Program-made: the position numbers and the translations under genes
Notes under the pieces: generated by a model
Databases searched by the model: none
What the model was told of the DNA's origin: nothing
Seen by the model: the letters and a program-made list of their open reading frames with translations, nothing else
Part shown: piece after piece, positions 10,363 through 35,484 of the stretch
How the letters are laid out: the number at the start of each line of letters is the position of its first letter
How positions within the stretch are numbered: position 1 is the first letter of the stretch
NCBI GenBank assembly: GCA_964448985.1
Contig: CAYVBI010000004.1
Location: 1-36,033, forward strand
Reading direction: 5' to 3'
Source of the DNA: an uncultured Dehalococcoidales bacterium
GTDB taxonomy: Bacteria > Chloroflexota > Dehalococcoidia > GIF9 > UBA5629
DNA: 36,033 nucleotides

Positions 10363-10383
10363 TCAAATATTCAATTGGCATAA

Positions 10384-10412: not shown

Positions 10413-10435
10413 AGTATACCCTTGCGGCAAACTCG

Positions 10436-10465
10436 TTGCTATTGCCGGAACCTTAACGCTATAAT
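10436..10465 (+). promoter_or_regulatory. Putative sigma70-type promoter of aglB
   Basis: TTGCTA (10436-10441), 18 nt, TATAAT (10460-10465), about 20 nt before ATG 10485. Confidence 0.55.
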
Positions 10466-10484
10466 CTATCTCAAGGTCAGATAT

Positions 10485-12866
10485 ATGACGTTTAATAAAA
10501 TATGGTCCTGGGCCATCGTGATAGTACTCCTTCTGACTATTGTAATGTTGGCGCTCTGGCTGAGGATTGCGCTCCCCTATGATCAGGTGTTTGTCGGGGA
10601 TTGGGTGAAGATGACGGGTGTGGACGCCTATTACTACATGCGCCTGGTAGATAACCTGATGAAACACTTCCCGCAGCTCACGCAATTCGATCCCTATCTA
10701 CTCTATCCCGGGGGCGTGCTGACCGGGTTACAGCCTGATTTCTTCGCTTATTTCATGGGCGGTATCATATGGCTTCTCAGCCTGGGAAATGCCGATCAGC
10801 ATACTGTGGACGTAATATCGGTGTATATTCCGCCTGTGCTGGCGGTGTTGACCATACTGGCCGTGTTCTTTATCGGCGTACTGCTGGGCAGCAGGTGGCT
10901 GGGGCTGATGTCCGCCGGATTGCTGGCCATCATGCCAGGGGAGTTCCTCAACAGGTCGCTGCTGGGCTATACCGACCATCATATCGCCGAGGTAATGTTC
11001 TCCACAGCCATCATGCTGTTTGTTTTCCTGGCCGTGCGAGTGAGCCGGGAAAGGAGTATAGGCGTGCTGACAAAGGCTGGCTGGGGCGGCATCGGGAAAA
11101 TGGTGACGTTCAGCGCCCTGGCAGGAATTTTTATGGGATTGTACATGTTGACCTGGTCCGGCGCTCTGATGTTCGCCCTGATCATTTTTATATTTATCGT
11201 GGCGCAGGCCATTATCGACCATTTGCACGGTTGGGCTGTCGATTATCTGGGCGTCCTGGGCGCCTGTCTTTTCGGGGTGGGGTTGATTATGTACCTGCCG
11301 TGGATCAAGAGCACGATGACGGTGGTGGGACTCGCTATGGGGTTGCTGTTGTCCGTGCTGTTGCCTCTTATCTCCAGATGGATGAACGGCAGGGGATTGA
11401 AACCGCTTTATTATCCTGTTGTGATTGCGGGACTGGCTGTGCTGGGCGTGGCGTTACTGGCGCTGGTAAGCCCGTTGATATTTCAATTGATGGCAGGCAG
11501 CATGGCCAACATTTTCATCTGGCCCGTGGGGACGACCGTAATGGAGATGCAGCCTCTCCTCATTCAGCAGGGTAATTTCACCTTTGCAGTGGCCCTGGGC
11601 AACTATATGCTGGCCTTTTTCTTAAGCCTTGTATGTATAGCGGTTCTGTTCTACCAGGTGATAAAAAGTGGCCGGGCGGACAGGACACTGCTGCTGGTAT
11701 GGAGCATCATTATTTTACTATCGGCGCTGTCCATGCGGCGTTTCGCCTATTATTTCGCGGTCAACGTCGCGCTGCTGACGGGCTATCTCTGCTGGGTACC
11801 GCTTGACGCGCTAATCAGGAAGAAATACGCGTCAACGGCGGCAGCAGCAACTATGAGAACCGCGGCCAGGGGAAAGAAACGTGCGGCAAAGCAGGCGCAG
11901 CAGTCGAGGTCGGCGAAGCGGACCTCCATGCAGGGCAACTTCGCAATCGCAGCGGTACTGGCTCTGTTAGTGCTGCTGGTGTATTACCCCAATATCGGGC
12001 CGATGCCCGATGGGCAGAAGCCCTCAGTCGACCTGGCCACGCGGCCTTTGTTCGCCCCTTCAAATGCGTGGTGCGAGGCCGTGGACTGGCTGAGGACAGA
12101 AACCCCTGAACCGTTTGGCGATGCAGATACTTACTACGGATTATATAAACCCGTTAACCGGCAGGGAGGATTCGAATACCCTTCCGGCGCCTACGGGATT
12201 ATGGCCTGGTGGGATTACGGCTACTGGATCGCCAGGATAGGTCAGCGGCCACCGGCCACCAACCCGGGGACTGGTCATCTCGGATCGGCTTATTTCTTTA
12301 CTTCCCAGGATGCCCCGTCGGCTGAGCGGGTAATAGACGCATATGGTTCACGTTATGTGATCGTTGATGACCAGATAGCCGCCTATGACGGCAAATTCCA
12401 TGCGCTGGCCTCCTTGAGCGGCTCGGATTACTCGCACTATTACGATATGTTCTTAACCAAACAGAATAACCAGTATGTGCCGTCGATCCGTTTTTACCCG
12501 GAGTATTACCGCAGCATGGTCAGCAGGTTATATAATTTCGACGGGAAGGCTGTGGCGCCGGGGAGCGTTGATGTTATTGCGTACGATGAGTTCACGGCTC
12601 AGGATGGAGGACAGTATAAAGAGATCATCGATAGCCGAAAATTCAACTCATATTCAGCGGCAGAGCAGTTTATCAAAGAAAATGCGGGAAAGAATTACAT
12701 TATAGCCGGCCAGGATCCCGGTGAAAGCCCTGTACCGCTGGACGAATTGAAGGACTACAAGCTCGTTTACAGTTCGCAGCAAAAAGTGCCTGTGGGATCG
12801 AGGTCCCAGCCCAGTATCAAGATATTTGAGTATGAGAGCAATTCGACTCCACCGGCAGGCGATTAG
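10485..12866 (+). CDS. aglB: STT3-family oligosaccharyltransferase, euryarchaeal AglB type
   Basis: Many N-terminal TM helices. Motifs GVDAYYYMR, FDPYLLYPGG, RSLLGYTDHHIAE, TVMEMQP (TIxE-like), RRFAYY, MAWWDYGYWI (WWDYG at 12207-12221), GKFHAL. ATG 10485 preferred over TTG 10422 because a promoter lies between them. Confidence 0.95.
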   Translation: MTFNKIWSWAIVIVLLLTIVMLALWLRIALPYDQVFVGDWVKMTGVDAYYYMRLVDNLMKHFPQLTQFDPYLLYPGGVLTGLQPDFFAYFMGGIIWLLSLGNADQHTVDVISVYIPPVLAVLTILAVFFIGVLLGSRWLGLMSAGLLAIMPGEFLNRSLLGYTDHHIAEVMFSTAIMLFVFLAVRVSRERSIGVLTKAGWGGIGKMVTFSALAGIFMGLYMLTWSGALMFALIIFIFIVAQAIIDHLHGWAVDYLGVLGACLFGVGLIMYLPWIKSTMTVVGLAMGLLLSVLLPLISRWMNGRGLKPLYYPVVIAGLAVLGVALLALVSPLIFQLMAGSMANIFIWPVGTTVMEMQPLLIQQGNFTFAVALGNYMLAFFLSLVCIAVLFYQVIKSGRADRTLLLVWSIIILLSALSMRRFAYYFAVNVALLTGYLCWVPLDALIRKKYASTAAAATMRTAARGKKRAAKQAQQSRSAKRTSMQGNFAIAAVLALLVLLVYYPNIGPMPDGQKPSVDLATRPLFAPSNAWCEAVDWLRTETPEPFGDADTYYGLYKPVNRQGGFEYPSGAYGIMAWWDYGYWIARIGQRPPATNPGTGHLGSAYFFTSQDAPSAERVIDAYGSRYVIVDDQIAAYDGKFHALASLSGSDYSHYYDMFLTKQNNQYVPSIRFYPEYYRSMVSRLYNFDGKAVAPGSVDVIAYDEFTAQDGGQYKEIIDSRKFNSYSAAEQFIKENAGKNYIIAGQDPGESPVPLDELKDYKLVYSSQQKVPVGSRSQPSIKIFEYESNSTPPAGD

Positions 12867-13005
12867 TACGGCGATACAAAAGCGAAGCATAGGCTATAGT
12901 GGGAAGGCCGGAACAATAGGAGCATCGAGTTATCGATGGCGAAATAGTATTAGGGGGCTTTCAGTACATTGTCCACCATCAAATGAAAACACACTTAATT
13001 CATAG

Positions 13006-13014
13006 TGATATAAT
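13006..13014 (+). promoter_or_regulatory. Extended -10 promoter element ahead of the sugar-biosynthesis cassette
   Basis: TGATATAAT (TGn-TATAAT), 23 nt upstream of ATG 13038. Confidence 0.5.
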
Positions 13015-13037
13015 TTGTGTATTAAGAATTGAATGAG

Positions 13038-14255
13038 ATGAAAATACCGATAGCAAAGCCATATATTGGGGAAGAGGAAAAGCGAGCAACAGCTGCGGTG
13101 CTGGAATCAGGCTGGTTAGTGCAGGGTGCTAAAGTAGCTGAGTTCGAGACGATGGTATGCAAATTTACAGGCGTGAAATTTGCAAAGGCATCGAGTTCAT
13201 GTACTACGGCTCTCCATCTTGCACTGGTTTCATTGGGGATTGGTCCCGGTGATGAAGTGCTTGTTCCCTCGTTTACATTTGTTGCATCTGCTAACGCAAT
13301 TGAATATACAGGAGCAAAGCCGGTTTTTATTGATATCGATCCCAAAAGTTTCAACATCGATGTTGACGGGCTGGAAAAGTACCTGTCGCGCAAGAAAAAT
13401 CAAGGGGCAAGGGTGACTGCAATCATGCCTGTTCACCTGTTCGGTCTGTGTGCCGATGTGAGTGGGATCATGGAATTGGCTAAACGGTATGATCTCCTTG
13501 TTATTGAGGATGCCGCATGTGCACTGGGAAGCTACTGCGGCCCCCATCATGCCGGGACTATGGGCGATGCGGGTTGCTTTAGTTTTCACCCTCGCAAGCT
13601 CATAACCACCGGAGAGGGTGGCATGGTTGTCACTAACAGCCCGGACATCTCCAGTTTTGTTTCCAGTTTAAGAGATCACGGAGCATCGGTTTCCGATCTG
13701 GAGAGGCACAAGAAAAACAGCAGTGTGCTTCCCGAATACGACCGTATAGGCTATAACTATCGCCTAACCGATATTCAAGCGGCTATAGGCATAGAGCAAA
13801 TGAAGAAGCTGCAGTGGATCATAGACAGGAGGGCGGAGAAAGCCGCCAGGTATAACGAAGGCCTAGGGGATATTGAATGGCTGCAAATACCACATGTACC
13901 GGAGGGATACAGGCACAGTTACCAGTCCTATGTGGTTATTGTGCGCGATCAGGAGAATGATCTTATGTCGCTGCATAAGATTGACATATTACGCAATATC
14001 CGGGACGCAATAATGGCCAAGCTTGCTGAGAGAGGAATTGCCACTAGACAGGGGACCTCGGCCGTGCATAGGTTAGGTTATTATCGTAACAAGTATGGGC
14101 TGAAAGACAATGATTTCCCGGTTTCTCTTCAAGCGGAGCAGCTGACTATTGCTCTGCCCTTATACCCGCAAATGACCGATGAAGAACAGGATTATGTGAT
14201 TGAAAACCTGCATCAGGCGGTAGGAGAAATTTCACTGTCAAGGGCACGCAAATGA
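13038..14255 (+). CDS. DegT/DnrJ/EryC1/StrS-family PLP sugar aminotransferase
   Basis: Motifs SSCTTALHLAL, GPGDEVLVPSFTFVASANA, PVHLFG, IEDAACALG, FSFHPRKLITTGEGG, GYNYRL, LPLYP. Confidence 0.93.
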   Translation: MKIPIAKPYIGEEEKRATAAVLESGWLVQGAKVAEFETMVCKFTGVKFAKASSSCTTALHLALVSLGIGPGDEVLVPSFTFVASANAIEYTGAKPVFIDIDPKSFNIDVDGLEKYLSRKKNQGARVTAIMPVHLFGLCADVSGIMELAKRYDLLVIEDAACALGSYCGPHHAGTMGDAGCFSFHPRKLITTGEGGMVVTNSPDISSFVSSLRDHGASVSDLERHKKNSSVLPEYDRIGYNYRLTDIQAAIGIEQMKKLQWIIDRRAEKAARYNEGLGDIEWLQIPHVPEGYRHSYQSYVVIVRDQENDLMSLHKIDILRNIRDAIMAKLAERGIATRQGTSAVHRLGYYRNKYGLKDNDFPVSLQAEQLTIALPLYPQMTDEEQDYVIENLHQAVGEISLSRARK

Positions 14256-14905
14256 TTCACGAAACTGTCAGGCTTTACGGTAAAAACACGATCGATGACA
14301 GTTGCTGGTTGCTGGAGGACGTGATCATCGGTTATCCCGATGCCGAGATATTCAATGAGATAAAAAAACACGGTCATAAAATTGAAGATCATAAATTTGT
14401 TGGATCAACTATTCAAGCAAATGCATTGATCAGGTCCGGCACCATTATCTATTGTAAAGTAAATATTGGTAAAAACTTTCGTAGCGGACATCGTGTTTTG
14501 ATCAGAGAAAAGACAGTTATTGGAGAGAACGTTCTTATTGGCAGTAATGTGATAATTGAGGGACATGTCAACATCGGAAACAATGTCAGCATTCAGAGCA
14601 ACGTTTATATTCCTACCAATTCGGTGATCGCCGATTTTGTATTCATCGGCCCCAATGCAGTGCTCAGCAATGATAAATATCCTCCGATGAGGAAAATTAC
14701 GAAGATGAACGGGCCTGTACTGAACAGGGGCGTATCAGTGGGTGCTAACGCCACCATATTGCCTGGCGTAGAAATCGGGGAGGGGAGTATGGTGGCCGCC
14801 GGCGCCGTTGTCGTTAAAAACGTGCCTCCCTGGACTCTGGCGGTTGGCGTTCCGGCCAGATGTACAGACCTGCCCCGAGATACCAAGGTGATCAATAAGC
14901 TGTAA
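14252..14905 (+). CDS. Hexapeptide-repeat (left-handed beta-helix) sugar N-acetyltransferase, WbpD-like
   Basis: Hexapeptide repeats IGENVLIG, IGNNVSIQ; VFIGPNAVLSNDKYP, VGANATILPGVEIG, GVPAR. Confidence 0.88.
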   Translation: MIHETVRLYGKNTIDDSCWLLEDVIIGYPDAEIFNEIKKHGHKIEDHKFVGSTIQANALIRSGTIIYCKVNIGKNFRSGHRVLIREKTVIGENVLIGSNVIIEGHVNIGNNVSIQSNVYIPTNSVIADFVFIGPNAVLSNDKYPPMRKITKMNGPVLNRGVSVGANATILPGVEIGEGSMVAAGAVVVKNVPPWTLAVGVPARCTDLPRDTKVINKL

Positions 14906-14925
14906 TTGTACGCGAGGTTAATCGT

Positions 14926-15831
14926 ATGAGAGTAGGAGTTATCGGCGCTGGTGTGATGGGCAGGCACCATGCAAGGGTTTATCACGAGCTGGGCGCCGAC
15001 CTTGTCGGTATAGCCGACATAGATATAAAGAAGGCTCAAGAGGTAGCCGATAAATATCAAACCAAGGCCTTTAAAAAATATGCGCAATTATTGGAACAGG
15101 GGCTGGACGCTGTTAGCGTAGCGGTACCCTCGAAGTTGCACAGTGTGGTTGCGGTAGATGTTGCCGAACATGGAGTTAATATGCTGGTGGAGAAGCCCAT
15201 TGCTGATACGATGGAGAGCGGAAACAAGATCATCGATGTGGCCAGGAAAGCCAATGTAATTCTCATGGTAGGGCATATTGAGAGGTTTAATCCGGCAGTG
15301 CAAAAACTGGTACAGATTATTAGTGAAGGAGTACTCGGTGACCTGGTGGTATTATCATCCAGAAGAGTGGGACCTTTCGTAACCAGGGTAAAGGATATAG
15401 GGATCACCATGGATGTTGCTTCCCATGACATAGATATTGCCAGGTATTTAACAAACAGGGAACCAGTTGAGGTACTGGCAAAATCAATTAATGTGAAAAA
15501 CAAAAAAGGCGATTGCGCCATCATGATTCTGGATTTTGGCCGGGTGACCGCCTCCATCGAGGTTAACTGGTTTACTCCGCATAAGGTCAGAAGCCTGGTT
15601 GTAACGGGAACTGATGGAATAGCCTACGCTGATTATATCGAACAGAGCGTGACAATTTTTAATTCATCTTGGAAAATGGAACCAAAGATTGAGAAAGGCG
15701 AGCCATTGCGACTGGAGTTGAAGCATTTCTTGGAATGTGTTGAACAGGGGAAAGAACCTTTGATCAGCGGCGAAGACGGCCTCAGGACGCTGGAGATCGC
15801 CTTGAAGATAGAGAGGAGCTCGTTCAAATAA
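14926..15831 (+). CDS. Gfo/Idh/MocA oxidoreductase, likely UDP-HexNAc(A) 3-dehydrogenase (WbpB/GnnA-like)
   Basis: Motifs GVIGAGVMGRHH, LVEKPIA, VGHIERFNPAV, DVASHDID; adjacent to an aminotransferase and acetyltransferase. Confidence 0.85.
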   Translation: MRVGVIGAGVMGRHHARVYHELGADLVGIADIDIKKAQEVADKYQTKAFKKYAQLLEQGLDAVSVAVPSKLHSVVAVDVAEHGVNMLVEKPIADTMESGNKIIDVARKANVILMVGHIERFNPAVQKLVQIISEGVLGDLVVLSSRRVGPFVTRVKDIGITMDVASHDIDIARYLTNREPVEVLAKSINVKNKKGDCAIMILDFGRVTASIEVNWFTPHKVRSLVVTGTDGIAYADYIEQSVTIFNSSWKMEPKIEKGEPLRLELKHFLECVEQGKEPLISGEDGLRTLEIALKIERSSFK

Positions 15832-16811
15832 TGAATTTGAAAAATAAGTCGGTGCTGGTAACAGGCGGCGCCGGTTTCATCGGAAGCCACCTGGTGGACC
15901 GTTTGGTTAAAGAGAAGCCGTCAAATATCATTGTCGTAGACAACTTTTACCTCGGGAAAGAATCAAATCTGCGGGATGCCAGATTGAATTTCCCGTCGCT
16001 TAAGATTGTAAAAATGGATTGCTCGGATCAGAAAAAGATGGAGAGGCTGGTTAAAAATGAGGACGTTGACGTTGTCTTTAACCTGGCGGTGATACCCCTG
16101 CCGATATCTCTGATTGAGCCATGCTGGGTTTATCGGCATAATGTCGACATGGCGCTTAGCGCCTGTGAGCTGGCCCGCAAGGGTTTCTATAAAACACTGG
16201 TACATTTTTCATCTTCGGAGGCATATGGGGATTGTCAATATGCGCCGATGGATGAGGGACATCCACTTAATCCTACGACATCATACGGCGCCAGCAAAGC
16301 TGCCTGCGACCATCTGATCCTTTCATACTGCAAATCGTTTAGAATCGATGCCGTCATTATAAGGCCGTTCAACAACTACGGGCCGCGTCAAAACGAAGGG
16401 AGCTATGCCGGAGTAATTCCAGTAACCATCAAGCGCATTCTTGGCGGTGATAGTCCCATTGTCCATGGAGACGGCGAACAGACCAGGGATTTTATATATG
16501 TTGCCGATACAGCCGAAGCTGCAATTAAGGCGTATAACTGTTTGAAAACCAGGGGCAAAATATTAAATATAGCCAGATCGAAGGAGATTTCGATAAACAG
16601 TCTGGTCGCACTCATAACTGAACACCTGCAATGCAGCAAACCTGTTATTCATGATGAAGAGAGACCCGGAGACTTAAGAAGACTTGTCGGCAGCACTGTT
16701 TTGGCCAAAGAACTAATTGGATTTGAGCCGATCACATCCTGGCAAGATGGACTGAAATCGACGATACAGTGGTTTAAAAAAGCGAGACATAATGTTTCCG
16801 TTAAGAAATGA
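15831..16811 (+). CDS. NAD-dependent nucleotide-sugar epimerase/dehydratase (extended SDR)
   Basis: Motifs LVTGGAGFIGSHL, SSSEAYG, YGASK, RPFNNYGPRQ, GDGEQTRDFIYV. Confidence 0.92.
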   Translation: MNLKNKSVLVTGGAGFIGSHLVDRLVKEKPSNIIVVDNFYLGKESNLRDARLNFPSLKIVKMDCSDQKKMERLVKNEDVDVVFNLAVIPLPISLIEPCWVYRHNVDMALSACELARKGFYKTLVHFSSSEAYGDCQYAPMDEGHPLNPTTSYGASKAACDHLILSYCKSFRIDAVIIRPFNNYGPRQNEGSYAGVIPVTIKRILGGDSPIVHGDGEQTRDFIYVADTAEAAIKAYNCLKTRGKILNIARSKEISINSLVALITEHLQCSKPVIHDEERPGDLRRLVGSTVLAKELIGFEPITSWQDGLKSTIQWFKKARHNVSVKK

Positions 16812-17413
16812 CGGAGGTTTTCAAAGTGTTACCCGAGAGCGAAAAATACCAAACAGAGCGCGCAATACTGACAAAACTGCGGCAGCTGTATAAAAATCTG
16901 AGAAAGGAATTCCGACAGAAATGGGATCGTGACTTTCCTTTTGAAGAGATACTTTTTGATAGATGGGAAAGGGCAAATGATTTAGGCTTTGGTGAAGGTA
17001 CAAGCATCTATCATAGCAGTTATGTTTATGGTGATGTAAAGGTCGGTAAAGGTGCCTGGATAGGACCCTATACACTGCTTGATGGATCAGGAACCCTGGT
17101 TATTGGCGATCACTGTAATATTTCTTCCGGGGTGCAGATATATACGCACGATAGTGTTAAGAGGGCATTGACCGGAGGAATCGCACAAATTGAACATGCG
17201 CCTGTAGTTATAGGTGATTACTGCTATATTGGCCCACAAACTGTGATAACAAAAGGTGTTACTATCGGAGATCATAGCGTTATTGGTGCCTGTTCCCTGG
17301 TAAATAAGGACATACCGCCTTATTCAATAGCTATGGGAATACCATGCAGGATAGCCGGTAATGTTGAAATCGCTGAATCAGACGTAAAATTCCGCTATTT
17401 AAATGACCATTAG
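16808..17413 (+). CDS. Second hexapeptide-repeat acyltransferase
   Basis: Motifs VKVGKGAWIGP, IGDHCNISSGVQIYTH, IGDYCYIG, GVTIGDHSVIGA, GIPCR. Confidence 0.87.
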   Translation: MTEVFKVLPESEKYQTERAILTKLRQLYKNLRKEFRQKWDRDFPFEEILFDRWERANDLGFGEGTSIYHSSYVYGDVKVGKGAWIGPYTLLDGSGTLVIGDHCNISSGVQIYTHDSVKRALTGGIAQIEHAPVVIGDYCYIGPQTVITKGVTIGDHSVIGACSLVNKDIPPYSIAMGIPCRIAGNVEIAESDVKFRYLNDH

Positions 17414-17502
17414 GTGTGTATTATTGAAGCACCCTGCTTATAGTGGAAGCCTTACTCACGATATATTTTGTAGTGCATATTAATACCGGGTGGAGCTTTT
17501 AT

Positions 17503-18517
17503 TTGGGGTATAGATCTATAGTCAATAACATTCCAGGTCTCGAAAAACTATATAGTGCCTACAATTATCTGGATAGGCGGCGTTATGTGAGCTTTGCCAA
17601 TTATCCACACACGATCAGTATTGAATTAACCACCAGATGCAACTCGGTGTGCACATATTGTCCACGTGGGGATCTGGTAAACCGTAATATAAGAAAGATT
17701 CAAGACATGGACTTTAAATTGCTGGAACATATAATTCAACAAATTCGTGTTTCGAAATTTGAACCTCGGGAAATATCGCCTGTCGGATTGGGAGAACCCA
17801 TGTTATATGGAGACCTGATCCCGGCTATCCGTTTGATTAAACGCGAGTTACCATCAGCCTATCTTTCATTGAATACAAATGGTATTCATTTCACTAAAGA
17901 GCAGCAGGACGCTTTGATATCAAATAACGTGGATTGCCTTACAATCAGTCTTAATTTTCATTCCCGTGATATCTATATAAAACACTGCGGTATCGGCGCC
18001 TTTGACCAAGTGTGCACGAATATTGAGCGCTTTCTAAAAGCGAAGCGAAGCAATAAACCTAAGACTATAATACAGATACTCGATATTGATGATAATGTGC
18101 GGGATATGGTGGATTTTAAATCGTTCTGGTCAAAGAGAATAAATTCAAATGACACAATTAGTCTCAGGCCATTTTGTGACTTCGGAGGTACCGTAGCGAT
18201 CTCACAATATAAAGATTAAGAAGAGGTCAGGGAGAAGATATCCCTGCGAGCAGGTATTTAATCAGTTGATGATAAATGTTACGGGCGATTGTTTCCCGTG
18301 TTGCATGGGAATTACTACGGATAGCGATGATTCCCTGTGCATTGGAAATATCAAATACAAAAGTATCACCGATATGTACGCAACTGATTCCAAAGTCCAG
18401 GGTATTCGCAATATGCACAGAATGGATGACTATAGTTCGCTAAATATGTGCAGGGCATGTGATACATGGTTTGTACCTTCGAATATATTCGTAAGCATCG
18501 GTAACAAATGGTATTGA
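17503..18517 (+). pseudogene. Radical SAM + SPASM/twitch protein split by a +1 frameshift near 18197-18216
   Basis: The first frame has IELTTRCNSVCTYCPR, GLGEP, NTNG and ends at TAA 18217-18219. The +1 frame reads KIKKRSGRRYPCEQVFNQLMINVTGDCFPCC..IGNI..CRACD. Probable start is TTG 17503 behind GGAG (alternative GTG 17443). Confidence 0.75.
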
Positions 18518-18565
18518 TGAATCACGGATGCTAATACTGATAGTGCAGGAAATCTGATCATAAGT

Positions 18566-19822
18566 ATGGCTGAAAAAACAGGAGTAAATTTGGGAGACGA
18601 CATCTCTAAACCTGCTTTTAGCGGCAAACGAAAGCGGGTTTTTATCGGCCTGAATGAAATAGCGAATATTAGTGCTACATATGCAAAGGCTTTCCAGAGG
18701 CTCGGTTTTCTGACCTACACGGTTGTCCTGGATAAAAATCCTTATTTTATCGATGAACAATATGACGTGGTAATTGCCGAGAAAATCGGGCGTTTCCATG
18801 GCAGTTCCCTTAATCGTTTTTTTTCGCTGGTGTTTCAGCATTTAATTCTATGTATAGAATTTATTAAAACTTTATTCTGCTGCGATATTTTTATATTTAT
18901 ATACGGCAGCTCTTTTTTTTCGGAAAGCCATATTGACTATCCAATTTTAAAGTTAGCCGGCAAGAAAATAGTAACTATTTTTTGTGGCTGCGACATAAGA
19001 CACTGGTCAGCGTATGAACAGGAATTTGAATCATTGGAATTAGGAACCCTGTATAAGTCTTGCTGTGACGATTGTGATTCAAGGACATCTTGTTATTTAA
19101 CCAGGAAAATCGGAATTGCTAAAGCTGTCGAGAAATACAGTGATTTGATTCTTTCCCAGCGGAATCAATCTCAGTTATTAAGGCGTCCATATATGAGGAT
19201 TAATATACCCTTGATACTGTCGAGATATGAGTTTAATGTGCCGGCCAGAGACATACCCGTGGTTGTTCATGCGCCAACCAACCGGTCGATAAAAGGCACG
19301 GAACAAATAATTGAAGCGGTGAAGAAGCTGAAGGGAGAGGGAATAGAATTCGAATTTCGCTTTATTGAAAACTGTGACAATCATGAAGTACTTAAGATTC
19401 TATCTGATGCAGATATTGTTGTAGACCAGTTATATGCGCAAACAGTTGCTCTGCTGGCTCTGGAATCACTGGCTACCGGTAACGTTGTACTGATCGGCAG
19501 CATGCCGGGTTATGAGCTTATACCCGGTGATTGTCCTGCCATCTACATAAATCATGATAATTTATATAATGAACTTAAGGGCATTATCCTTGATAAGCAA
19601 CGCCGAATATTATTAGCTAAAGCCGGCAGGAAATATGTGGAGACTTATCACAATCATATAACTGTTACTAAACAGGTTCTTAATTGGTTGAAACCAGGCG
19701 GTATAAAGAAATATGATTATTATCCTGATTTTGCACAGAAGCACTATAAAATATCCGTTGATGTGTTAAAGAAAGAGAAGTTCTATCTGGTCAAGGATAT
19801 ACTTCGATTTCTCCGCCGATGA
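18566..19822 (+). CDS. GT-B fold glycosyltransferase (GT4-like, divergent)
   Basis: Motifs GCDIR, VVHAPTNRSIKGT, ADIVVDQL, LALESLATG, GRKYVETYH. Confidence 0.75.
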   Translation: MAEKTGVNLGDDISKPAFSGKRKRVFIGLNEIANISATYAKAFQRLGFLTYTVVLDKNPYFIDEQYDVVIAEKIGRFHGSSLNRFFSLVFQHLILCIEFIKTLFCCDIFIFIYGSSFFSESHIDYPILKLAGKKIVTIFCGCDIRHWSAYEQEFESLELGTLYKSCCDDCDSRTSCYLTRKIGIAKAVEKYSDLILSQRNQSQLLRRPYMRINIPLILSRYEFNVPARDIPVVVHAPTNRSIKGTEQIIEAVKKLKGEGIEFEFRFIENCDNHEVLKILSDADIVVDQLYAQTVALLALESLATGNVVLIGSMPGYELIPGDCPAIYINHDNLYNELKGIILDKQRRILLAKAGRKYVETYHNHITVTKQVLNWLKPGGIKKYDYYPDFAQKHYKISVDVLKKEKFYLVKDILRFLRR

Positions 19823-19865
19823 AATATGGATCACATATCCCCGATGATTTGAAGTGGCATAGACG

Positions 19866-21323: not shown

Positions 21324-21369
21324 TCAGCGGTGGATCGGTGATATAAAAAGAACATGGCCGGATAGTTAA

Positions 21370-24608: not shown

Positions 24609-24611
24609 TAT

Positions 24612-25787: not shown

Positions 25788-25813
25788 GTCTGGTAGAACC
25801 AAAAGGCATTAAT

Positions 25814-28204: not shown

Positions 28205-28931
28205 AAATAATCTCAAACCATCCAAAGAGGTTGTACGGTTTTTTCAGCCGTATGCCGTCATCATGATCGTAGATAAACCTGGAAATCGACAGGGGAAAGC
28301 GGTTCCATACGTAAGACGAGGCAACGTACCTGGCGTCTTCCAATCCCGCATCGCGAAAAACATTTCTGAGGTGGATCGGCGATAGTGCTCTTTCATGCGG
28401 CACCAAACCGGTGATCCCCGGCTTGATGCTGTTGAATATATTCATCAGCAGGCCGGAGTGGTTAAATACGTTTGGTTCCAGGGCAATAACCCAACCCCCC
28501 GCTTTTGTAACGCGCACGAATTCATTCACATAATTGATTAAATCGCCCTGCCCTACCAGGTGGTGAAGCAGTCCCGAGCACATGATGTAGTCGAAGCTGC
28601 AATCGGGAAACGGCAGGTTGCCCGTATCAGCCAGTATGCCTTCGAAACCTTTTGCTCTGAATTTCTTGAGGGCGTTTTCCGATATGTCTATACCGGTTAT
28701 GTGTGTCGAGGCTTTTTGCACATGTACCGCGTCTTCACCGTCGCCACATCCAACCTCAAGGATGAGCGAACTGCTGATACATCCCAGTTCCAGTAGCGTA
28801 TCGTATAATCTGGAGCGCACGGCGCTGTGTGCGAATAGATGCCTGGCAGGCATAGATTTAGATTTTGTATCATCCGGTCCCCATTTTTCCCACCATTTCC
28901 TTTCTTCCTCCAACGGATCACGTTTCACCAT
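28173..28931 (-). CDS. Class I SAM-dependent methyltransferase
   Basis: Motifs ILEVGCGDG, GIDIS, LPFPDCSFD, LLHH, RVTKAGG, LEPN. Confidence 0.9.
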   Translation of the reverse strand: MVKRDPLEEERKWWEKWGPDDTKSKSMPARHLFAHSAVRSRLYDTLLELGCISSSLILEVGCGDGEDAVHVQKASTHITGIDISENALKKFRAKGFEGILADTGNLPFPDCSFDYIMCSGLLHHLVGQGDLINYVNEFVRVTKAGGWVIALEPNVFNHSGLLMNIFNSIKPGITGLVPHERALSPIHLRNVFRDAGLEDARYVASSYVWNRFPLSISRFIYDHDDGIRLKKPYNLFGWFEIIYGRKVFNESD

Positions 28932-28979
28932 ATCAGCTTCCTTTTCTGCGGACAGTCCTCTTAATTTGTCGTCTATCGT

Positions 28980-30005: not shown

Positions 30006-30088
30006 AATCAATAGTTGAACCTGCAGTCAATATCATTATAACTGGAAAGCAAATGAGGCCGTACTTTTATCAACAGGAATCGGTGGTC

Positions 30089-31255
30089 CTACTTGAGGCC
30101 TTTGACCATATCGATCAACTGGGCTGCCCTGTGCCTGAAAGTATGTTCTTTCAATATACGTGCCCTCGCGCTGCTGCCTGCCCTTTCCCTTTCGTCCTTA
30201 TCGGCCAGCAGCTTCCGATATAATTCAATTGCCTGACCGGCGCTCTCTACCACGTACATTTCCTTTCCTATGTCAAACCACTGTTCGATGCCGTTATACG
30301 GTTGGGAAACGATACAGCAGCCGAATGCGGCCAGTTCAAACGGCCTTGAGGTCGAGGAGGCGAAAACGCTGGTGTGCGACCATCTGGTGATATTGAGGTT
30401 GATCTTGCTGCGGCAGCAGAATTGCCTCCACTGGCTGTAGGAAAGATCACCGAGCATCTTTGCCGCGCCTAAATCAATACCGAAATTTCCGCCGGCGACT
30501 GCGAAACTCACATCCGGCATCTCCCGGCTGGGTATGGTGATCATTTTCTCCATCCATTCCTCGCGGAAGTCGCTGCCGTAGCCGAAAAACGCTATGTCGA
30601 TATCCTTTTCAACCTCAGCGGGGGTCACCAGGTCGGGATCGATACCGTAATATAGGGCATGGACATTCCGTGCGCCAAGTTTTTCCAGGTCGGGTATGAC
30701 TCCCGCAGAGTTGGTTAAAAAGGCGTCATATTCGGTGAGGTCGGCCCCCTCGTAATAGTTGAATTTGAAGCCCCGGCTGATAGTGTATTTGGGCAGGATG
30801 GTGGGCATGTCGCCGTCATAGTAAACGACCGGGATGCCGAACTCCTTCTTGACGGCGGCGGGAATGCCGGTTATATGGTTGAGAGGTATACTCATCAGGA
30901 AAAGAAGGTCGAAGTCGGTTTCCTTCGTCAGTATTTGCCGCAGATGCCTCGCCCATTTCGGCCTGACATAGTGCTTGATCAGCTGGTCGGCGATGGGCGA
31001 AATCACGGTTTTCTGGCTGGGCGATTTACCACGGCGCTTACGGCTTTCCAGGAATGAGTTATACATGACGCTTTCGCGCGCGCATGGATTGTCGTATGTC
31101 TTCCACCACAGGCTCTCCACAGGTATGCCCATATACGGGATGACGGTGATTTCGTTGCCTTCTTCATAGAGGGCTTTTAAAAGCTGCCACCAGGCCGGGG
31201 TGCATCCCATCTTGTTCTTAAGGTCGATAGTGGAGGCCATGACCAGGATTTTCAT
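30089..31255 (-). CDS. CgeB / Glyco_trans_1_2-like glycosyltransferase
   Basis: Motifs YYDGD, YGIDPD, DIAFFG, SKINLNI, RPFELAAFG, ARILKEHTFRHRA. Confidence 0.82.
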   Translation of the reverse strand: MKILVMASTIDLKNKMGCTPAWWQLLKALYEEGNEITVIPYMGIPVESLWWKTYDNPCARESVMYNSFLESRKRRGKSPSQKTVISPIADQLIKHYVRPKWARHLRQILTKETDFDLLFLMSIPLNHITGIPAAVKKEFGIPVVYYDGDMPTILPKYTISRGFKFNYYEGADLTEYDAFLTNSAGVIPDLEKLGARNVHALYYGIDPDLVTPAEVEKDIDIAFFGYGSDFREEWMEKMITIPSREMPDVSFAVAGGNFGIDLGAAKMLGDLSYSQWRQFCCRSKINLNITRWSHTSVFASSTSRPFELAAFGCCIVSQPYNGIEQWFDIGKEMYVVESAGQAIELYRKLLADKDERERAGSSARARILKEHTFRHRAAQLIDMVKGLK

Positions 31256-31300
31256 ATGTTTCCTCTCAGACCGGGCGCGCCATACTTATAGCGAACGATT

Positions 31301-32293
31301 CTAAATATTTTCAAGCTCCGCAAATCTGTCTTTGGCCCAGTCGTACGTGCTTTTCAATCCCTCTTCAAGGCTCACGCGCGGTTCCCAGTTTAAGACTTTT
31401 TTAACCAGGGTCAGGTCGGCATTTCTGCCCCTGACGCCCTGCGGTTTGGATAGATCGTGTTTGATCTCGATCTTTTTTCCCGAAATTTTGATCGTCATCT
31501 CGGCGAGTTCATCGATGGTCACCATCTGGTCGGAGCCGATATTTATCGACCCCGTGTAATCTGAGTCCATCAATCTCAGCACAGCCTCGATACAATCATC
31601 GATATACAGAAAGCTTCTGGTCTGTTTGCCGTCTCCCCAGACCACATAATCCTGCTCGGGATATTTAATAGCCTTCATAATCAGGTGACAGGGCGCCTTG
31701 CCCTTCTGTTTATCAAATGCGGTATAAACTTCTCCGTAGATATTGTGGAACCGGGCGATCTTTATATTCATACCATAGTCGGTGCGGTAGGCCTCGCACA
31801 GTTTCTCTGTGAATATTTTTTCCCATCCGTAAAACTGGTCAGGATCGGCAGGGTAAGCGTCGTCCTCCTTGAGCGGCGTCACTTTCGCGTCTTTCTGGAG
31901 GTACTCGGGGTAAACGCATGCCGATGAGCTGTAGAAATATTTGATCACCTTGTTTTCGTGGGCGGACTGCAGCATATTGGTGTTGATCAATATGTTATCC
32001 CGCATGATATCCGCTCCGATGCTGGTGATGTATCCTATGCCGCCCATGTTGGCCGCAAACTGGAAAACGTAATCAACCCCCTTAGTCAACTTCAGGCAAT
32101 TCTTCTTGTCCCGCAGGTCTTCCTTGTGGAAATCGATTTTGTTCTTGATGTCCTTGATGTTGTTGAGAGATCCGCTGGAAAGATCATCCGCAACCCTCAC
32201 CCTGGCGCTCCTTTTTAAGAGGGTCCTGGCCATATGTGAACCTATCAGGCCGGCCCCACCCGCCACTAATACTTTGCTATTGGTCCAATCCAC
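31301..32293 (-). CDS. GDP-mannose 3,5-epimerase-like extended SDR
   Basis: Motifs GGAGLIGSH, FAANMGGIGYI, YSSSACVYPE, YGWEK, RFHNIYG, KAP, WGDGKQTRSFLYIDDC, PQGVRGRNAD. GTG start with AAGGAGG RBS. Confidence 0.85.
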   Translation of the reverse strand: MDWTNSKVLVAGGAGLIGSHMARTLLKRSARVRVADDLSSGSLNNIKDIKNKIDFHKEDLRDKKNCLKLTKGVDYVFQFAANMGGIGYITSIGADIMRDNILINTNMLQSAHENKVIKYFYSSSACVYPEYLQKDAKVTPLKEDDAYPADPDQFYGWEKIFTEKLCEAYRTDYGMNIKIARFHNIYGEVYTAFDKQKGKAPCHLIMKAIKYPEQDYVVWGDGKQTRSFLYIDDCIEAVLRLMDSDYTGSINIGSDQMVTIDELAEMTIKISGKKIEIKHDLSKPQGVRGRNADLTLVKKVLNWEPRVSLEEGLKSTYDWAKDRFAELENI

Positions 32294-32428
32294 AGGTATC
32301 CTCCTTTTAGTACGGCATCAGCAAGTACATCGCGTTATACATTAGGGTAACCCATAAAAAGCCCGGGGAATATGGCTTGAGCTGATCTGCAGGCATTGCC
32401 TGATGTGTAAACAGATAACCGGGAATAA

Positions 32429-33124: not shown

Positions 33125-33129
33125 TCAGG

Positions 33130-34908
33130 CTACCTGACGGTGACCGATTTGGCCAGGTTGCGCGGCATGTCGGGATTGCGGCCCCGCCTGGTGGCCATGT
33201 GGTAGGCCAGCAGTTGCAGCGGCACAACGGATACCATGGGGTAGAGCAGGTCGTGCACCTTCGGGATCCTGATCCAGTGGTCATAGACCTCGTTGTTGAC
33301 ATCGGAGACAGCTATTATTTTGGCCCCCCTGGCCTTGGCCTCAATGGCATTGCCCAGCGTCTCTTTGTACGTAAAATCACTGGGACAAATCACCAGCACG
33401 GGCGTGCCCTCCTCGATCAGCGAGAGTGTGCCGTGTTTCAGCTCGCCGGCGGGCATGCCCTCGGCATGGATATAGGAGATCTCCTTCAGCTTCAATGCCC
33501 CCTCCGAGGCTATGGCGAAGTTGATGCCCCGGGCGATGTAGTAGAAATCGTTCTTATCGTGGTATTCCTGCGTGATCCTGGTTATCTCGTCATTGTTCCA
33601 GTCGATGGCCCTGGCGACCTGCCGGCTGACCTTGCGTATATTGTCGACCGCCATATCGAACGAATGCACCATGGAAAATGCCAGCAGATAAAAGATGGCC
33701 AGCTGGTTGAGGAACGACTTGGTGGCGGCCACGCCGATCTCGGGACCGCAGTTCAGGTACAGGACATTGTGGCTGAGCTCACCCAGCAGCGACTGCGGCC
33801 TGTTTATGATTGAGACTATTCTGGCGCCCGCTTTGCGTGCCAGCTCTACGCCGTCGATCACGTCGAGGGTCTCGCCGCTCTGCGATATGGCCAGCACCAG
33901 GGTGTTCCTGCTCACGGATTCGGCGAAGTACTGGAACTCGGAAGCCATGACCACCTCGCAGAATTTTTTACCGACGCTCGAGAAGAGGTAGCGTCCCACC
34001 AGGGCGGCGTAACGCGATGAACCGCAGGCGGTGACTATGACCTGGTCGGCCCTCAGCACATCCAGCGCCACCGCTGTGAAAACGTCCTTGTCCTGGTGCG
34101 TTGCAGATATGAGTGTCTCGGGCTGCTCCATGATCTCTTTGAGCATGAAGTACTCGTACCCTTCCTTATTGTTGTCGTTCCAGACTGCATCCGGCTTAGA
34201 CGCCTTCTTGCTGATCGGTCTCCCGGTGGAGTCGAAGAAAACTGTTTTATCTGCGGTAAGAACCACTATTTCGCGCTCGCCCAGCATGTAAAGCTGGTCT
34301 ATCTGTCCGGCCAGCGCCATTGAGTCGCTGGCTGCGAAGGCCTTATTTTTGCCCAGGCCGACTATCAGAGGACTGCCCTTGCGGGTGCCTACGACCTTGC
34401 CGGGCTCCTCTGTGCTGATCGTGAGAAAGGCGTATGAGCCCTCCAGCCTGGGCGCCACCGCCATCACCGCCTCCTCGAGCGAGCGGCCGCGTTTCATCTC
34501 GTCTTCCAGCATGTGAGGGATGACCTCTGTATCGGTCTCGGAGATAAAGCGGTGTTTGTGCTTGATCAGGTCCTTGCGCAGCTCCTGGTAGTTATCTACG
34601 ATGCCGTTGTGTATCACTGCAATCTTGTTGCTGCAATCGCAGTGTGGGTGTGTGTTGACCTGGGTCACACCGCCATGTGTGGCCCAGCGCGTGTGTCCGA
34701 TGCCTACGCTGCCCGGCATCCTGTCCAGCCGGTATTTCCGGTTTACCTCCTCCAGCCTGCCCACTCCCTTCTTCACCACCAGCTTGCCGTCGTATATCAT
34801 GGCCACGCCCGATGAATCGTAGCCGCGGTATTCCATGCGCTTGAGGTCTTCAAAGATTACCGCCGCAGCCTTGCCGTTCTTGCTGCAATACCCTATGATT
34901 CCACACAT
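33130..34908 (-). CDS. glmS: Glutamine--fructose-6-phosphate aminotransferase (isomerizing)
   Basis: Motifs MCGIIG, EYRGYDS, GHTRWATHG, HNGIVDN, SETDTE, SQSGET, GVAATKS, EGALKLKEISY, ELKHG, PRNLAKSVTV. Confidence 0.97.
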   Translation of the reverse strand: MCGIIGYCSKNGKAAAVIFEDLKRMEYRGYDSSGVAMIYDGKLVVKKGVGRLEEVNRKYRLDRMPGSVGIGHTRWATHGGVTQVNTHPHCDCSNKIAVIHNGIVDNYQELRKDLIKHKHRFISETDTEVIPHMLEDEMKRGRSLEEAVMAVAPRLEGSYAFLTISTEEPGKVVGTRKGSPLIVGLGKNKAFAASDSMALAGQIDQLYMLGEREIVVLTADKTVFFDSTGRPISKKASKPDAVWNDNNKEGYEYFMLKEIMEQPETLISATHQDKDVFTAVALDVLRADQVIVTACGSSRYAALVGRYLFSSVGKKFCEVVMASEFQYFAESVSRNTLVLAISQSGETLDVIDGVELARKAGARIVSIINRPQSLLGELSHNVLYLNCGPEIGVAATKSFLNQLAIFYLLAFSMVHSFDMAVDNIRKVSRQVARAIDWNNDEITRITQEYHDKNDFYYIARGINFAIASEGALKLKEISYIHAEGMPAGELKHGTLSLIEEGTPVLVICPSDFTYKETLGNAIEAKARGAKIIAVSDVNNEVYDHWIRIPKVHDLLYPMVSVVPLQLLAYHMATRRGRNPDMPRNLAKSVTVR

Positions 34909-34910
34909 TT

Positions 34911-35351
34911 TTAATTCTCCGTTACCTTCATGATCAATACCAGCGGGTCTTTGATGTGTGGCCCAGCCCCGTTGTCCTTAAACAGGTAAAAATTCACTCT
35001 TTGGCCTTCCCCGGCATGGTTCAGAGTGAATTCCACCGGCTGCTCCCACTTCTGGCCGTCATTTAATTTGCCCACCGTTATCGACTTGATTATAGCATCA
35101 TTTTCCCTGATTTGAACTGTATAATCAGACAGTATCCCTTCGTGGTTCACGACGCCCACGATTACGCTAACAGGCTGCCCGGATATGGCCTGCGAAGGAT
35201 AATCAGTAGCTGCGCCCTGCTTGTCTAAAATGTAGAACTCGCTGAAGCTCTCAGACGGCTGTGAAGTCACACCCAGGTAGACGATCACCGCGATACATAC
35301 TAATATGGTGATTATTATTATGGCGGAGATTATTTTATTCGAGGTGGTCAT
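34911..35351 (-). CDS. Short DUF1616-family membrane-anchored protein
   Basis: One N-terminal TM helix, then FSEFYILDKQG..DYP, VGVVNHEG, WEQPVEF, FYLFK. ATG 35351 preferred over 35411. Confidence 0.78.
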   Translation of the reverse strand: MTTSNKIISAIIIITILVCIAVIVYLGVTSQPSESFSEFYILDKQGAATDYPSQAISGQPVSVIVGVVNHEGILSDYTVQIRENDAIIKSITVGKLNDGQKWEQPVEFTLNHAGEGQRVNFYLFKDNGAGPHIKDPLVLIMKVTEN

Positions 35352-35402
35352 GGTTTTATCACTTGCGGCGCTGCATTCTACGTACTGCGGGATGCGGTTG
35401 TC

Positions 35403-35484
35403 AATGCGCATATTGACCGGAAGTTAATAATTCAATAATATATAGGCTTAATGTCGGCAAAATATAATATGATAATGCGCATAT
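35403..35484. promoter_or_regulatory. Two copies of AATGCGCATAT (palindromic core ATGCGCAT) in a divergent promoter region
   Basis: Exact copies at 35403-35413 and 35474-35484. The first sits within the inverted repeat GTCAAT-N6-ATTGAC (35400-35417). TATAAT is at 35465-35470. Confidence 0.4.

Follow-up and report, generated by a model that had tools for sequence, protein, structure and literature searches.

A predicted protein N-glycosylation locus around an archaeal-type oligosaccharyltransferase in a Dehalococcoidia bacterium

The window analyzed here is a stretch of 36,033 nucleotides that constitutes the whole of contig C4 in a metagenome-assembled genome (MAG; G000) of 2.5 Mb, 464 contigs, and 64% completeness, whose host is a bacterium of the class Dehalococcoidia. 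Between positions 10485 and 35411 it carries a chromosomal locus that begins with the gene of an oligosaccharyltransferase (OST), continues with a glycan-building block of about 22 kb, and is, as we judge it, probably a protein N-glycosylation locus of a peptidoglycan-less bacterium organized around an archaeal AglB. The locus is real, bacterial, and conserved, with archaeal descent at its core, and it is its function in N-glycosylation that we call probable. An earlier reading of the same DNA from its letters alone (the sequence-only reading) had proposed an apparently complete archaeal-style N-glycosylation locus, a block of about 25 kb running from an OST with a WWDYG motif to a DUF1616 gene and glmS, and profile searches against Pfam and NCBIfam recovered that gene content at 10485-35411. 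A flippase, glycosyltransferases, and an OST do stand together; "complete" claimed too much, as the initiating enzyme is represented by a candidate only. The tests by sequence that this reading had named, among them an OST grouping with proteobacterial PglB and a contig of archaeal or chimeric origin, came out in its favor as far as sequence can tell.

The oligosaccharyltransferase and its archaeal relatives

The OST scored 585.9 bits against TIGR04154 (cut-off 450), its sole NCBIfam match and a model whose cut-off was passed among the control genomes only by Haloferax volcanii and Methanosarcina acetivorans. Its domains, PF02516 (E 8.5e-18, residues 47-455) and PF22627 (E 1.3e-19, residues 549-653), correspond to a multi-span N-terminal STT3 region and an AglB core. 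The best match among solved structures was Archaeoglobus fulgidus AglB-L (3waj, E 3.4e-46), in whose alignment GVDAYYY of the OST pairs with GNDPWYY, TDHH with NDHH, TVMEM with TIAEV, WWDYG with WWDYG, and DGK with TGK, and at the sequon-binding lysine motif DDQIAAYDGKFHAL of the OST aligns with DIEMETGKYYAM of 3waj. The WWDYG motif occupies residues 596-600 of an 814-amino-acid open frame, equivalent to W575-G579 of the 793-amino-acid protein, and in the latter numbering D47, D164, H166, E354, W575-G579, and K637 were invariant in 26 of 26 homologues (46-100% identity). These residues, among them the metal-binding acids of external loops EL1 and EL2 and the TIXE-type motif of EL5, presumably serve in metal and sequon binding as their counterparts do in the A. 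fulgidus AglB structures; we take the conserved K637 motif to be of the DK type and that of PglB to be of the MI type.

A profile of 26 Dehalococcoidia OSTs searched against the PDB matched AglB-L (1.1e-88), human STT3B (5.4e-15) and STT3A (5.4e-12), yeast STT3 (3.7e-6), and the C-terminal domain of Pyrococcus furiosus AglB (3e-5). A PglB-type OST was considered and rejected, since no PglB chain appeared among the PDB sequence matches, neither among the five of the single OST nor among the 24 of the profile at E<=10. Judged by its sequence, the protein is an intact AglB-type enzyme with all catalytic motifs, and it is likely to transfer a lipid-linked glycan to the asparagine of N-X-S/T. The best 120 of its 582 homologues were 45-78% identical to it, and those named by NCBI among these 120 bore the title 'oligosaccharyl transferase, archaeosortase A system-associated' with the organism labels Dehalococcoidia, Chloroflexi, or Chloroflexota bacterium; the best 120 of 299 homologues of the DUF2206 protein encoded in the same locus bore the same organism labels, so that the automatic annotations anticipated by the sequence-only reading do exist in related genomes. 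Many orthologous OSTs, as seen in the best 120 of 582 and in loci L004, L006, and L009, are about 1030-1070 amino acids long rather than about 790, with a C-terminal extension of about 250 amino acids that in some includes PF13517 or PF00041; the window copy is of the short form.

Scanning named genomes for the motif gave 120 loci, the majority from Methanosarcinaceae, Archaeoglobaceae, Methanotrichaceae, Thermoplasmatota, and Micrarchaeota, and 201 of 301 genomes of the phylum that includes Methanolobus sp. ZRKC2 matched the window OST at E<=1e-40, the best at 34-39% identity. Three phylogenies were built: a FastTree phylogeny of 140 rows, completed before ANME-1-like rows had been obtained, from which rows shorter than 600 amino acids and duplicate genes were removed; a quick IQ-TREE phylogeny of 67 rows, comprising 18 Dehalococcoidia sequences, 29 full-length sequences from the 30 top-scoring archaeal loci, and a further 20 archaeal sequences (17 from named loci and three from the genomes behind named loci); and a careful IQ-TREE phylogeny (LG+G4) of 45 rows, drawn from the 67 but omitting their two longest branches, rooted on four Micrarchaeota. 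The Dehalococcoidia OSTs formed a single clade in all three trees (support 100, 100, and 100/100). In the careful tree this clade was sister to nine archaeal sequences (98/97), the pair was sister to four more (99/97), and Methanosarcinaceae followed (91/80); the quick tree had the same topology, and the FastTree phylogeny grouped the clade with the AglBs of Methanosarcinales and Archaeoglobi. Exact look-ups found four of nine archaeal tree proteins in the protein collection, three of them named, with the labels 'Methanophagales archaeon' (ANME-1) and 'Methanomicrobia archaeon' in the sister clade and 'Methanosarcinales' in the next. The archaeal character that had been claimed for the OST was thus upheld by the TIGR04154 score, by AglB-L as best match among solved structures, and by its nested position among archaeal AglBs in trees that held no PglB rows. 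We infer a single transfer of the gene from an ANME-1/Methanosarcinia-related archaeon into Dehalococcoidia, followed by duplication, and the gene would have entered without archaeosortase A.

Comparisons among relatives used a set of 41 genomes, namely G000 and its 40 nearest relatives, of which G008, G006, G002, and G014 belong to the same genus. In the automatic name given to such OSTs, the words "archaeosortase A system-associated" do not apply here, because archaeosortase A (TIGR04125) was found in none of the 41 genomes, although control genomes matched, and the PGF-CTERM signal was found in no protein of G000; the association belongs to the naming context of TIGR04154 and is not a catalytic requirement. 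Exosortase (PF09721) had no match in G000, and among the controls it matched only Methanocaldococcus jannaschii.

Three contigs with bacterial labels also carried a WWDYGHWI motif, L091 (Thermodesulfobacteriota), L060 (Deltaproteobacteria), and L078 (Omnitrophota). The first was considered as a second bacterial lineage of AglB and rejected, being a contig of 3.4 kb whose tree position was nearly identical to that of a Methanosarcinales AglB and which is probably a misbinned archaeal contig; L060 formed a very long branch (2.24), and L078 was too short for placement.

Gene content, exchangeable cassette, and the DUF2206 protein

Genes were called from Pfam and NCBIfam profile searches of the window proteins. 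The locus comprises twelve genes on the forward strand (10485-25787) and then eight on the reverse strand that run from 35411 back to 25814:

10485-12866, forward: AglB-type OST, 793 amino acids from its ATG, in an open frame from 10422 (814 amino acids); PF02516, PF22627, TIGR04154
13029-14255, forward: DegT/PseC-like sugar aminotransferase; PF01041 (E 3e-111), PseC model at 323 bits, below its cut-off
14252-14905, forward: hexapeptide-repeat sugar N-acetyltransferase; PF00132, match to the NeuD/PglB/VioB-type subfamily below cut-off
14926-15831, forward: GFO/IDH/MocA oxidoreductase, probable UDP-GlcNAc 3-dehydrogenase; PF01408, NF040723 (an archaeal model) at 392 bits against a cut-off of 450
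15831-16811, forward: NAD-dependent sugar epimerase/4,6-dehydratase; PF01370, PF16363
16808-17413, forward: second hexapeptide-repeat acetyltransferase; PF00132
17443-18219, forward: radical SAM protein; PF04055 (E 1.8e-15), no NCBIfam model at cut-off
18566-19822, forward: 418-amino-acid protein without family, weakly GT-B-like; no Pfam match at E<=0.001
19866-21323, forward: Wzx/MOP-type flippase of lipid-linked oligosaccharides; PF01943, PF13440
21370-22566, forward: GT4 (GT-B) glycosyltransferase; PF00534, PF13579
22554-24608, forward: AsnB-type glutamine amidotransferase; PF00733, PF13537, TIGR01536 at 463 bits
24612-25787, forward: GT4 (GT-B) glycosyltransferase; PF13439, PF13692
25814-28225, reverse: DUF2206 membrane protein; PF09971, GT-C fold assigned to residues ~200-803
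28173-28931, reverse: SAM-dependent methyltransferase; PF08241
28980-30011, reverse: DUF362 protein; PF04015 (E 5.6e-42), 81-83% identity in G008 and G002
30089-31255, reverse: GT-B glycosyltransferase (Glyco_trans_1_2); PF13524 (E 2.9e-30), 68-91% identity in G008, G002, and G014
31301-32293, reverse: NAD-dependent sugar epimerase/reductase; PF01370
32429-33124, reverse: DPM1-like GT2 glycosyltransferase, probable polyprenyl-phosphate sugar synthase; PF00535, conserved in G008, G006, and G014
33130-34908, reverse: GlmS, glutamine--fructose-6-phosphate aminotransferase; PF01380, PF13522, 82-94% identity in relatives
34911-35411, reverse: short DUF1616 protein, consisting of a single transmembrane helix and the family's C-terminal domain; PF07760 (E 2e-27, covering 143-288 of the 307 model positions)

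The flippase, the DPM1-like GT2, the DUF2206 protein, and the sugar-modifying enzymes named by the sequence-only reading were all recovered by profile matches. Its four GT-B enzymes were reduced to three above Pfam cut-offs, the fourth (18566-19822) having only sub-threshold matches to Glyco_trans_1 (E 0.014-0.2), and its DUF1616 protein matched PF07760 over no more than the C-terminal half of the family. The flippase, the three GT-B enzymes, and AglB are thereby co-located in a single locus, in which the OST is co-oriented with the next eleven genes and lies 162 bp before the first of them. The AsnB-type protein probably amidates a sugar carboxylate, a role in the glycan being suggested by its position. 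The models nearest to the GT2 in NCBIfam were PpgS (122 bits), AglJ (110 bits), and the haloarchaeal Dol-P hexose transferase (83.5 bits), all below cut-off. Specifically archaeal-like are the OST, DUF2206, and DUF1616 proteins only; the remaining genes are generic polysaccharide genes. The DUF1616 profile matched only H. volcanii and M. acetivorans among the control genomes and was present in 23 of the 41 relatives, the short form lying in or near the locus in G000, G002, G004, G006, G008, G010, G014, G023, and G025. The DUF1616 protein HVO_2173 of H. volcanii is reported as an AglB-dependent glycoprotein (PMC8241124); that of the window has no N-X-S/T sequon on reading of its sequence.

The OST neighborhoods of six relatives were fetched and all window proteins compared against them. 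The four same-genus genomes named above share the order cob operon, btuF, OST, then DUF2206, then GT2, GlmS, DUF1616, and ETF (the ETF gene lies at 35510 in the window, beyond the right end of the locus), and in G008 this arrangement sits within a contig of 1,278,315 bases. In these four loci the flank proteins were 57-95% identical to those of the window, DUF2206 43-64%, and the OST 64-74%. The block from the DegT gene to the radical SAM gene had no match in the four genomes at E<=1e-10 except distant aminotransferase and epimerase paralogues; the orphan 418-amino-acid protein and the flippase were held in common at high identity only with G008 (59% and 88%), the flippase match of G002 being just 24%. 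In G007 the OST and DUF2206 genes are 22 kb apart, and the 20 kb retrieved on the downstream side of the OST, ending before DUF2206, contained only an epimerase-like match to the window. The guanine-cytosine (GC) content is 0.56-0.61 in the flank (1-10 kb) and 0.38-0.47 over 13-25 kb. Such a pattern marks a chromosomal site that stays fixed while its glycan cassette, lying between the OST and a right-hand module (DUF2206 to GT2, GlmS, and DUF1616), is exchanged.

A sequence profile of DUF2206 had no PDB match at E<=10, and solved relatives were consequently obtained only by fold search. An AF2 model built from an alignment of 30 sequences (mean pLDDT, the predicted local distance difference test, 80.5; pTM, the predicted template modeling score, 0.84) was compared with 48,161 representative PDB chains, and ranks 1-20 were all GT-C glycosyltransferases or GT-C-fold proteins (Z 20.9 to 9.8); below them came unrelated helical proteins at Z of about 8. 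A. fulgidus AglB (3waj) ranked first (Z 20.9, 438 residues aligned, root-mean-square deviation 6.0), ahead of ALG12 (18.9), STT3B (18.7), PglB (17.6), DPY19 (17.2), ArnT (16.9), AftA (16.5), and Pmt (15.7), with ALG9, AftB, ALG3, AftD, PIG-U, PimE, EmbA/B, and ALG6 further down. The match covers residues ~200-803, with about six extra helices N-terminal to it. Catalytic acids of GT-C enzymes are located just after the first helix of the module, and in the model D236 and E240, invariant in 30 of 30 DUF2206 sequences, stand just past its first helix (H207-226). DUF2206 is therefore modeled as a GT-C-fold protein and is most likely the second, putative lipid-sugar-dependent transferase of the locus; the fold and the neighboring DPM1-like GT2 together suggest a polyprenyl-phosphate-linked sugar donor.

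DUF2206 was present in 19 of the 41 relatives and lay on the OST contig, at most 25 kb away, in G002, G006, G007, G008, G014, G018, and G025. Among the control genomes its Pfam family matched only M. acetivorans, and of the 301 genomes searched in the Methanolobus phylum, 55 had full-length homologues of 28-37% identity (blastp). The sequence-only reading had proposed a DUF2206 tree, and the one obtained separated 15 bacterial from 12 archaeal rows (100); it fits one transfer between the domains, and, being unrooted, indicates neither direction nor donor.

The gene types of the 13-35 kb block also suit an ordinary Wzx-dependent surface-polysaccharide locus (capsule, extracellular polysaccharide, or O-antigen-like) that the OST merely adjoins while taking its glycan from elsewhere or serving another substrate. 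DegT, hexapeptide transferases, GT4, Wzx, and AsnB are generic in this respect, the hypervariable and low-GC cassette resembles O-antigen loci, and paralogous OSTs in G002 and G008 adjoin WecA- or PglC-type initiators of their own. We nevertheless consider this explanation unlikely, given that the Pfam searches of the window turned up no Wzy polymerase, chain-length regulator, or export protein, that the OST borders the cassette in all five same-genus loci examined (window included) and is oriented with it, and that DUF2206 resembles GT-C enzymes of the OST/ALG/ArnT/PMT type.

Distribution among probably wall-less relatives and genomic setting

AglB matches were found in 30 of the 41 relatives (19 of the 25 high-quality ones), often two to six per genome. 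Among 401 Chloroflexota genomes drawn evenly and searched with TIGR04154, 12 scored above the cut-off, all 12 in the class of the window; the other 217 matches were weak and belonged to other GT-C enzymes, save one AglB fragment at a contig edge (G294, same class, 218 bits). A survey of 301 genomes of the class returned 42 that matched AglB at E<=1e-30, 34 of them above the cut-off (33 of 222 among high-quality genomes), concentrated in families f1 (7/7), f4 (5/8), f17, f119, f126, and f134; none was found there in f8 (0/17), f15 (0/17), f23 (0/17), or f98 (0/12). MraY (TIGR00445) was present in 123 of these 301 genomes, and when the two lists were cross-tabulated by hand, 41 of the 42 AglB carriers were without it and 122 of the 259 non-carriers had it. 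The only genome with both was G438, whose AglB match was sub-threshold and whose contamination was 9%. The Chloroflexota and MraY tallies include five unpublished genomes (G262, G182, G306, G078, and G632), on which no conclusion rests. Genes of the WecA/MraY family were not found in G000, G008, G006, or G018. Because 41 of 42 carriers are without MraY, AglB carriers probably have no peptidoglycan. Palmer et al. (2023, PMC10284905) infer that peptidoglycan synthesis was lost once, in the ancestor of Dehalococcoidia orders 10-25; neither 'oligosaccharyl' nor 'glycosylation' is used in that paper. The association of AglB with the absence of MraY is real and phylogenetically non-independent, AglB living within the wall-less radiation.

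Second AglB paralogues were seen at G008:C4:13408-20242, 2-4 kb from a PglC-like gene, and at G002:C74:97325-102507, 2-4 kb from a WecA/MraY-family gene that is the sole PF00953 match of G002. This suggests separate glycosylation modules for each AglB paralogue, and different copies may use differently initiated glycans.

Archaellin genes (PF01917, up to seven matches per genome) occurred in five of the 41 relatives (G009, G011, G013, G021, and G023), four of which carry AglB and three of which belong to the genus of the window. An AglB homologue with such a narrow clientele, for example archaellins or pilins of archaeal origin, instead of one acting on surface proteins at large, would agree with this overlap and with the published Chloroflexota archaellum of Methanotecta origin (PMC12488501). 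We regard it as improbable, since 26 of the 36 relatives without an archaellin match still have AglB, no archaellin was found in the 64%-complete G000, and the two to six AglB matches of several genomes suggest broad use.

To the left of the locus, the window contains the following features, of which the riboswitch and the reverse-strand promoter mark the left boundary and lie outside the glycosylation system:

3-2123, reverse: He_PIG surface protein that has an N-terminus resembling a signal peptide, Ig-like repeats, one transmembrane helix, and a tail rich in proline (PPPPPPPPPPPVYYPPYPPMPPPP)
3-10221, reverse: cobalamin salvage/uptake operon with He_PIG; cobU, cobS, cobT, cobO, aminotransferase, cbiB, ABC ATPase, permease, and BtuF-like binding protein
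10250-10376, reverse: cobalamin riboswitch, full-length match to the Rfam model (30.9 bits, E 6.8e-6)
10384-10412, reverse: promoter TTGACA-N17-TATCCT of the divergent btuF-cob operon
10436-10465, forward: sigma-70-like promoter candidate TTGCTA-N18-TATAAT, matching the consensus at 10 of 12 positions and lying 20 nt ahead of the OST start codon; function suggested by position and consensus

The elements at 10250-10465 form a divergent control region of 264 bp, with the riboswitch and one promoter directed at btuF-cob on the reverse strand and the promoter candidate directed at the OST on the forward strand. The sequence-only reading had taken the host to be bacterial from the reverse-strand promoter, the riboswitch, and cobU. 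The TTGACA-N17-TATCCT promoter occurs once in the window against 0 expected (100 shuffles) and cobU was confirmed by PF02283; the riboswitch match is full-length but 0.6 bit below the Rfam gathering score of 31.5, so that it was missed at the gathering threshold and recovered by E-value search. The frames of the ABC ATPase (7348-8574, reverse) and the permease (8145-9206, reverse) share 430 bases, and the true ATPase start is probably further downstream, as the ABC domain begins at residue 162. The He_PIG protein is 68-84% identical in G008, G006, G007, and G014, where it likewise adjoins the cob operon (the fetched stretch of G002 ends before it); its five sequons among 20 asparagines are too few for any argument.

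Near-identical sequence to window positions 9500-19400 was found in lake-water and freshwater metagenome runs, four of which contained 0.73-0.89 of the sampled words, which suggests that the organism is a Dehalococcoidia of freshwater lakes. Two lake-water runs, one of which may be the source sample of the MAG, spanned all 30 bins of 9000-28900, with 63 of 68 aligned contigs at >=99% identity and the other five at 95-99%. No listed metagenome contig crosses the junction at 10.4 kb (the longest there begins at 10458), an absence that is not evidence. Short contigs identical to the window occurred in two metatranscriptome runs from two studies, all within 13369-17205, a weak hint that the cassette is expressed; no RNA contig fell on the OST or past 20.3 kb in these runs, which again is not evidence. 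Contiguity was settled by synteny, because the window is a whole contig and read cover at the junctions could not settle it. A misbinned archaeal contig or a chimera of bacterial cob and archaeal glycosylation genes, which a fragmented MAG, a window equal to one contig, and a GC drop of about 0.15 might have suggested, is almost certainly not the explanation and stands refuted as far as the comparative data on synteny and identity reach: the junctions recur in four other genomes of the genus, one of them within a 1.28 Mb contig, the nearest archaeal OSTs are far more distant (34-39% identity) than those of the genus (64-78%), the two lake runs span the bins, and the homologues are labeled Dehalococcoidia or Chloroflexota.

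A proposed pathway and its meaning

From the family membership of these genes, a pathway around AglB can be proposed. GlmS and the sugar-nucleotide enzymes would supply UDP-HexNAc and modified sugars; the 3-dehydrogenase, aminotransferase, and acetyltransferase would yield a 2,3-diacetamido sugar by the three-enzyme route known from Pseudomonas WbpB/E/D and from methanococci; and AsnB, the methyltransferase, and the radical SAM protein may modify the sugars further. The glycan would be assembled on the inner side of the membrane with polyprenyl phosphate as its anchor, the DPM1-like GT2 being the likeliest initiator and the GT-B enzymes extending the chain. Initiation by a GT2 would link the carrier through a monophosphate, which is the euryarchaeal arrangement. 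The GT2, the only initiator candidate in the window, was chosen because neither WecA/MraY-type nor PglC-type initiators were found in G006 and G018 (98-99% complete, both with AglB) and because euryarchaeal AglB donors are monophosphate-linked. The Wzx-like flippase would turn the glycan outward, and AglB would move it en bloc to the asparagine of N-X-S/T in secreted or S-layer-type proteins. DUF2206 most likely would add an extra sugar outside the cell from a polyprenyl-phosphate sugar made by the same or a similar GT2, by analogy with Haloferax AglD/AglS or ArnC/ArnT, and the low-GC cassette, swapped between species, would make the glycan species-specific.

G000 contains, on contig C115 (66-6717), a cluster resembling Campylobacter pgl, with a PglC-like phosphoglycosyltransferase (PF02397, E 2.8e-57) and, assigned by open reading frame (ORF) size and N-terminal sequence only, a PglF-like dehydratase of 615 amino acids, a DegT-like aminotransferase, a probable acetyltransferase, a further ORF, and a GT4-like ORF.

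Several observations weigh against the N-glycosylation pathway as drawn. The GT2 falls below the cut-off of every specific NCBIfam model, including those of AglJ and PpgS, so that it may act either as initiator or as donor synthase, and the initiator could come instead from the PglC/PglF/PglE/PglD-like cluster of C115. Bacterial loci for surface polysaccharides typically contain sugar, GT4, and Wzx genes just as much. Of the ten f4 genomes, seven have AglB and none has DUF2206, and DUF2206 is for this reason not required for the OST. The association with MraY loss rests on related genomes and may mirror a single event, the archaeal tree rows were chosen by similarity and one motif and held no Asgard, Thermoproteota, PglB, or eukaryotic rows, the RNA contigs may include DNA and span only part of the cassette, and in every carrier N-glycosylation is predicted from genes.

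With the euryarchaeal AglB pathway (A. fulgidus AglB-L; H. volcanii AglB with AglJ/AglD/AglR/AglS) the locus shares the OST subfamily TIGR04154 and its catalytic motifs, a DPM1-like GT2, a Wzx-like flippase, a second GT-C enzyme possibly decorating the glycan outside the cell, and diacetamido-sugar enzymes that we take to resemble those for methanogen N-glycans. It differs in its bacterial host and presumably bacterial polyprenol (rather than dolichol) carrier, in that neither archaeosortase A in the 41 relatives nor PGF-CTERM in G000 was found, in a second GT-C enzyme, DUF2206, that has no match in H. volcanii, and in an OST only 34-39% identical to its nearest archaeal counterparts. The Campylobacter-type pgl system, to our knowledge the characterized form of bacterial en-bloc N-glycosylation, is likewise lipid-linked (here by prediction), encodes its OST beside glycan genes, and has its PglF/E/C/D likeness on another contig of G000; the window OST, in contrast, is not PglB-like by sequence, has a conserved lysine where A. 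fulgidus AglB-L has one, and is accompanied in the window by no PglC-type initiator. As in the ArnC/ArnT, GtrB/GtrC, and PpgS/Rv3779 pairs, a DPM1-like GT2 and a GT-C membrane enzyme share one locus, ArnT being among the structural matches of DUF2206 and PpgS the best NCBIfam match of the GT2; the DUF2206 model differs from such enzymes in some six additional helices at its N-terminus and a small domain at its C-terminus. The Chloroflexota archaellum offers a parallel. The 2025 report on it (PMC12488501) describes a second archaeal cell-surface system in the same bacterial classes, Dehalococcoidia and Anaerolineae, traced to Methanotecta and so to a donor in the same archaeal region, and it finds the filament of an Anaerolineae strain to be O-glycosylated. 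In the genomes surveyed here archaellins are much rarer than AglB, and the text of that report mentions neither AglB nor oligosaccharyltransferase.

Within the literature searched, which lay outside subscription journals and supplementary files, no paper was found that links Dehalococcoid*, Chloroflexi, or Chloroflexota to oligosaccharyl-, STT3, or AglB as an OST, single co-occurrences being unrelated; DUF2206 occurred by name in no paper found there and by its Pfam accession in one, an unrelated data-mining study. The genes of the locus are thus already annotated automatically and apparently undescribed.

More tentatively, and with somewhat less than even confidence, a wider picture may be drawn in which the wall-less Dehalococcoidia radiation captured AglB once from ANME-1-related archaea, also holds DUF2206, and builds an archaeon-like envelope, with surface or S-layer proteins N-glycosylated from a monophosphate-linked polyprenol and decorated outside the cell, the species-specific cassette forming a variable outer face, for example against phages. 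If true, this would be a third, independent route to bacterial protein N-glycosylation, with an entire style of envelope having passed from one domain to the other. An intact AglB of archaeal descent, often duplicated across many species of wall-less Dehalococcoidia, would widen the PglB-only picture and would fit with the recent demonstration, within this phylum, of an archaeal archaellum. DUF2206 gains a fold and a likely activity, and OSTs that presumably work with bacterial polyprenol carriers would be of interest to glycoengineers. For the organisms themselves, the locus provides a concrete hypothesis of how abundant aquatic and sediment bacteria may stabilize their surface without peptidoglycan.

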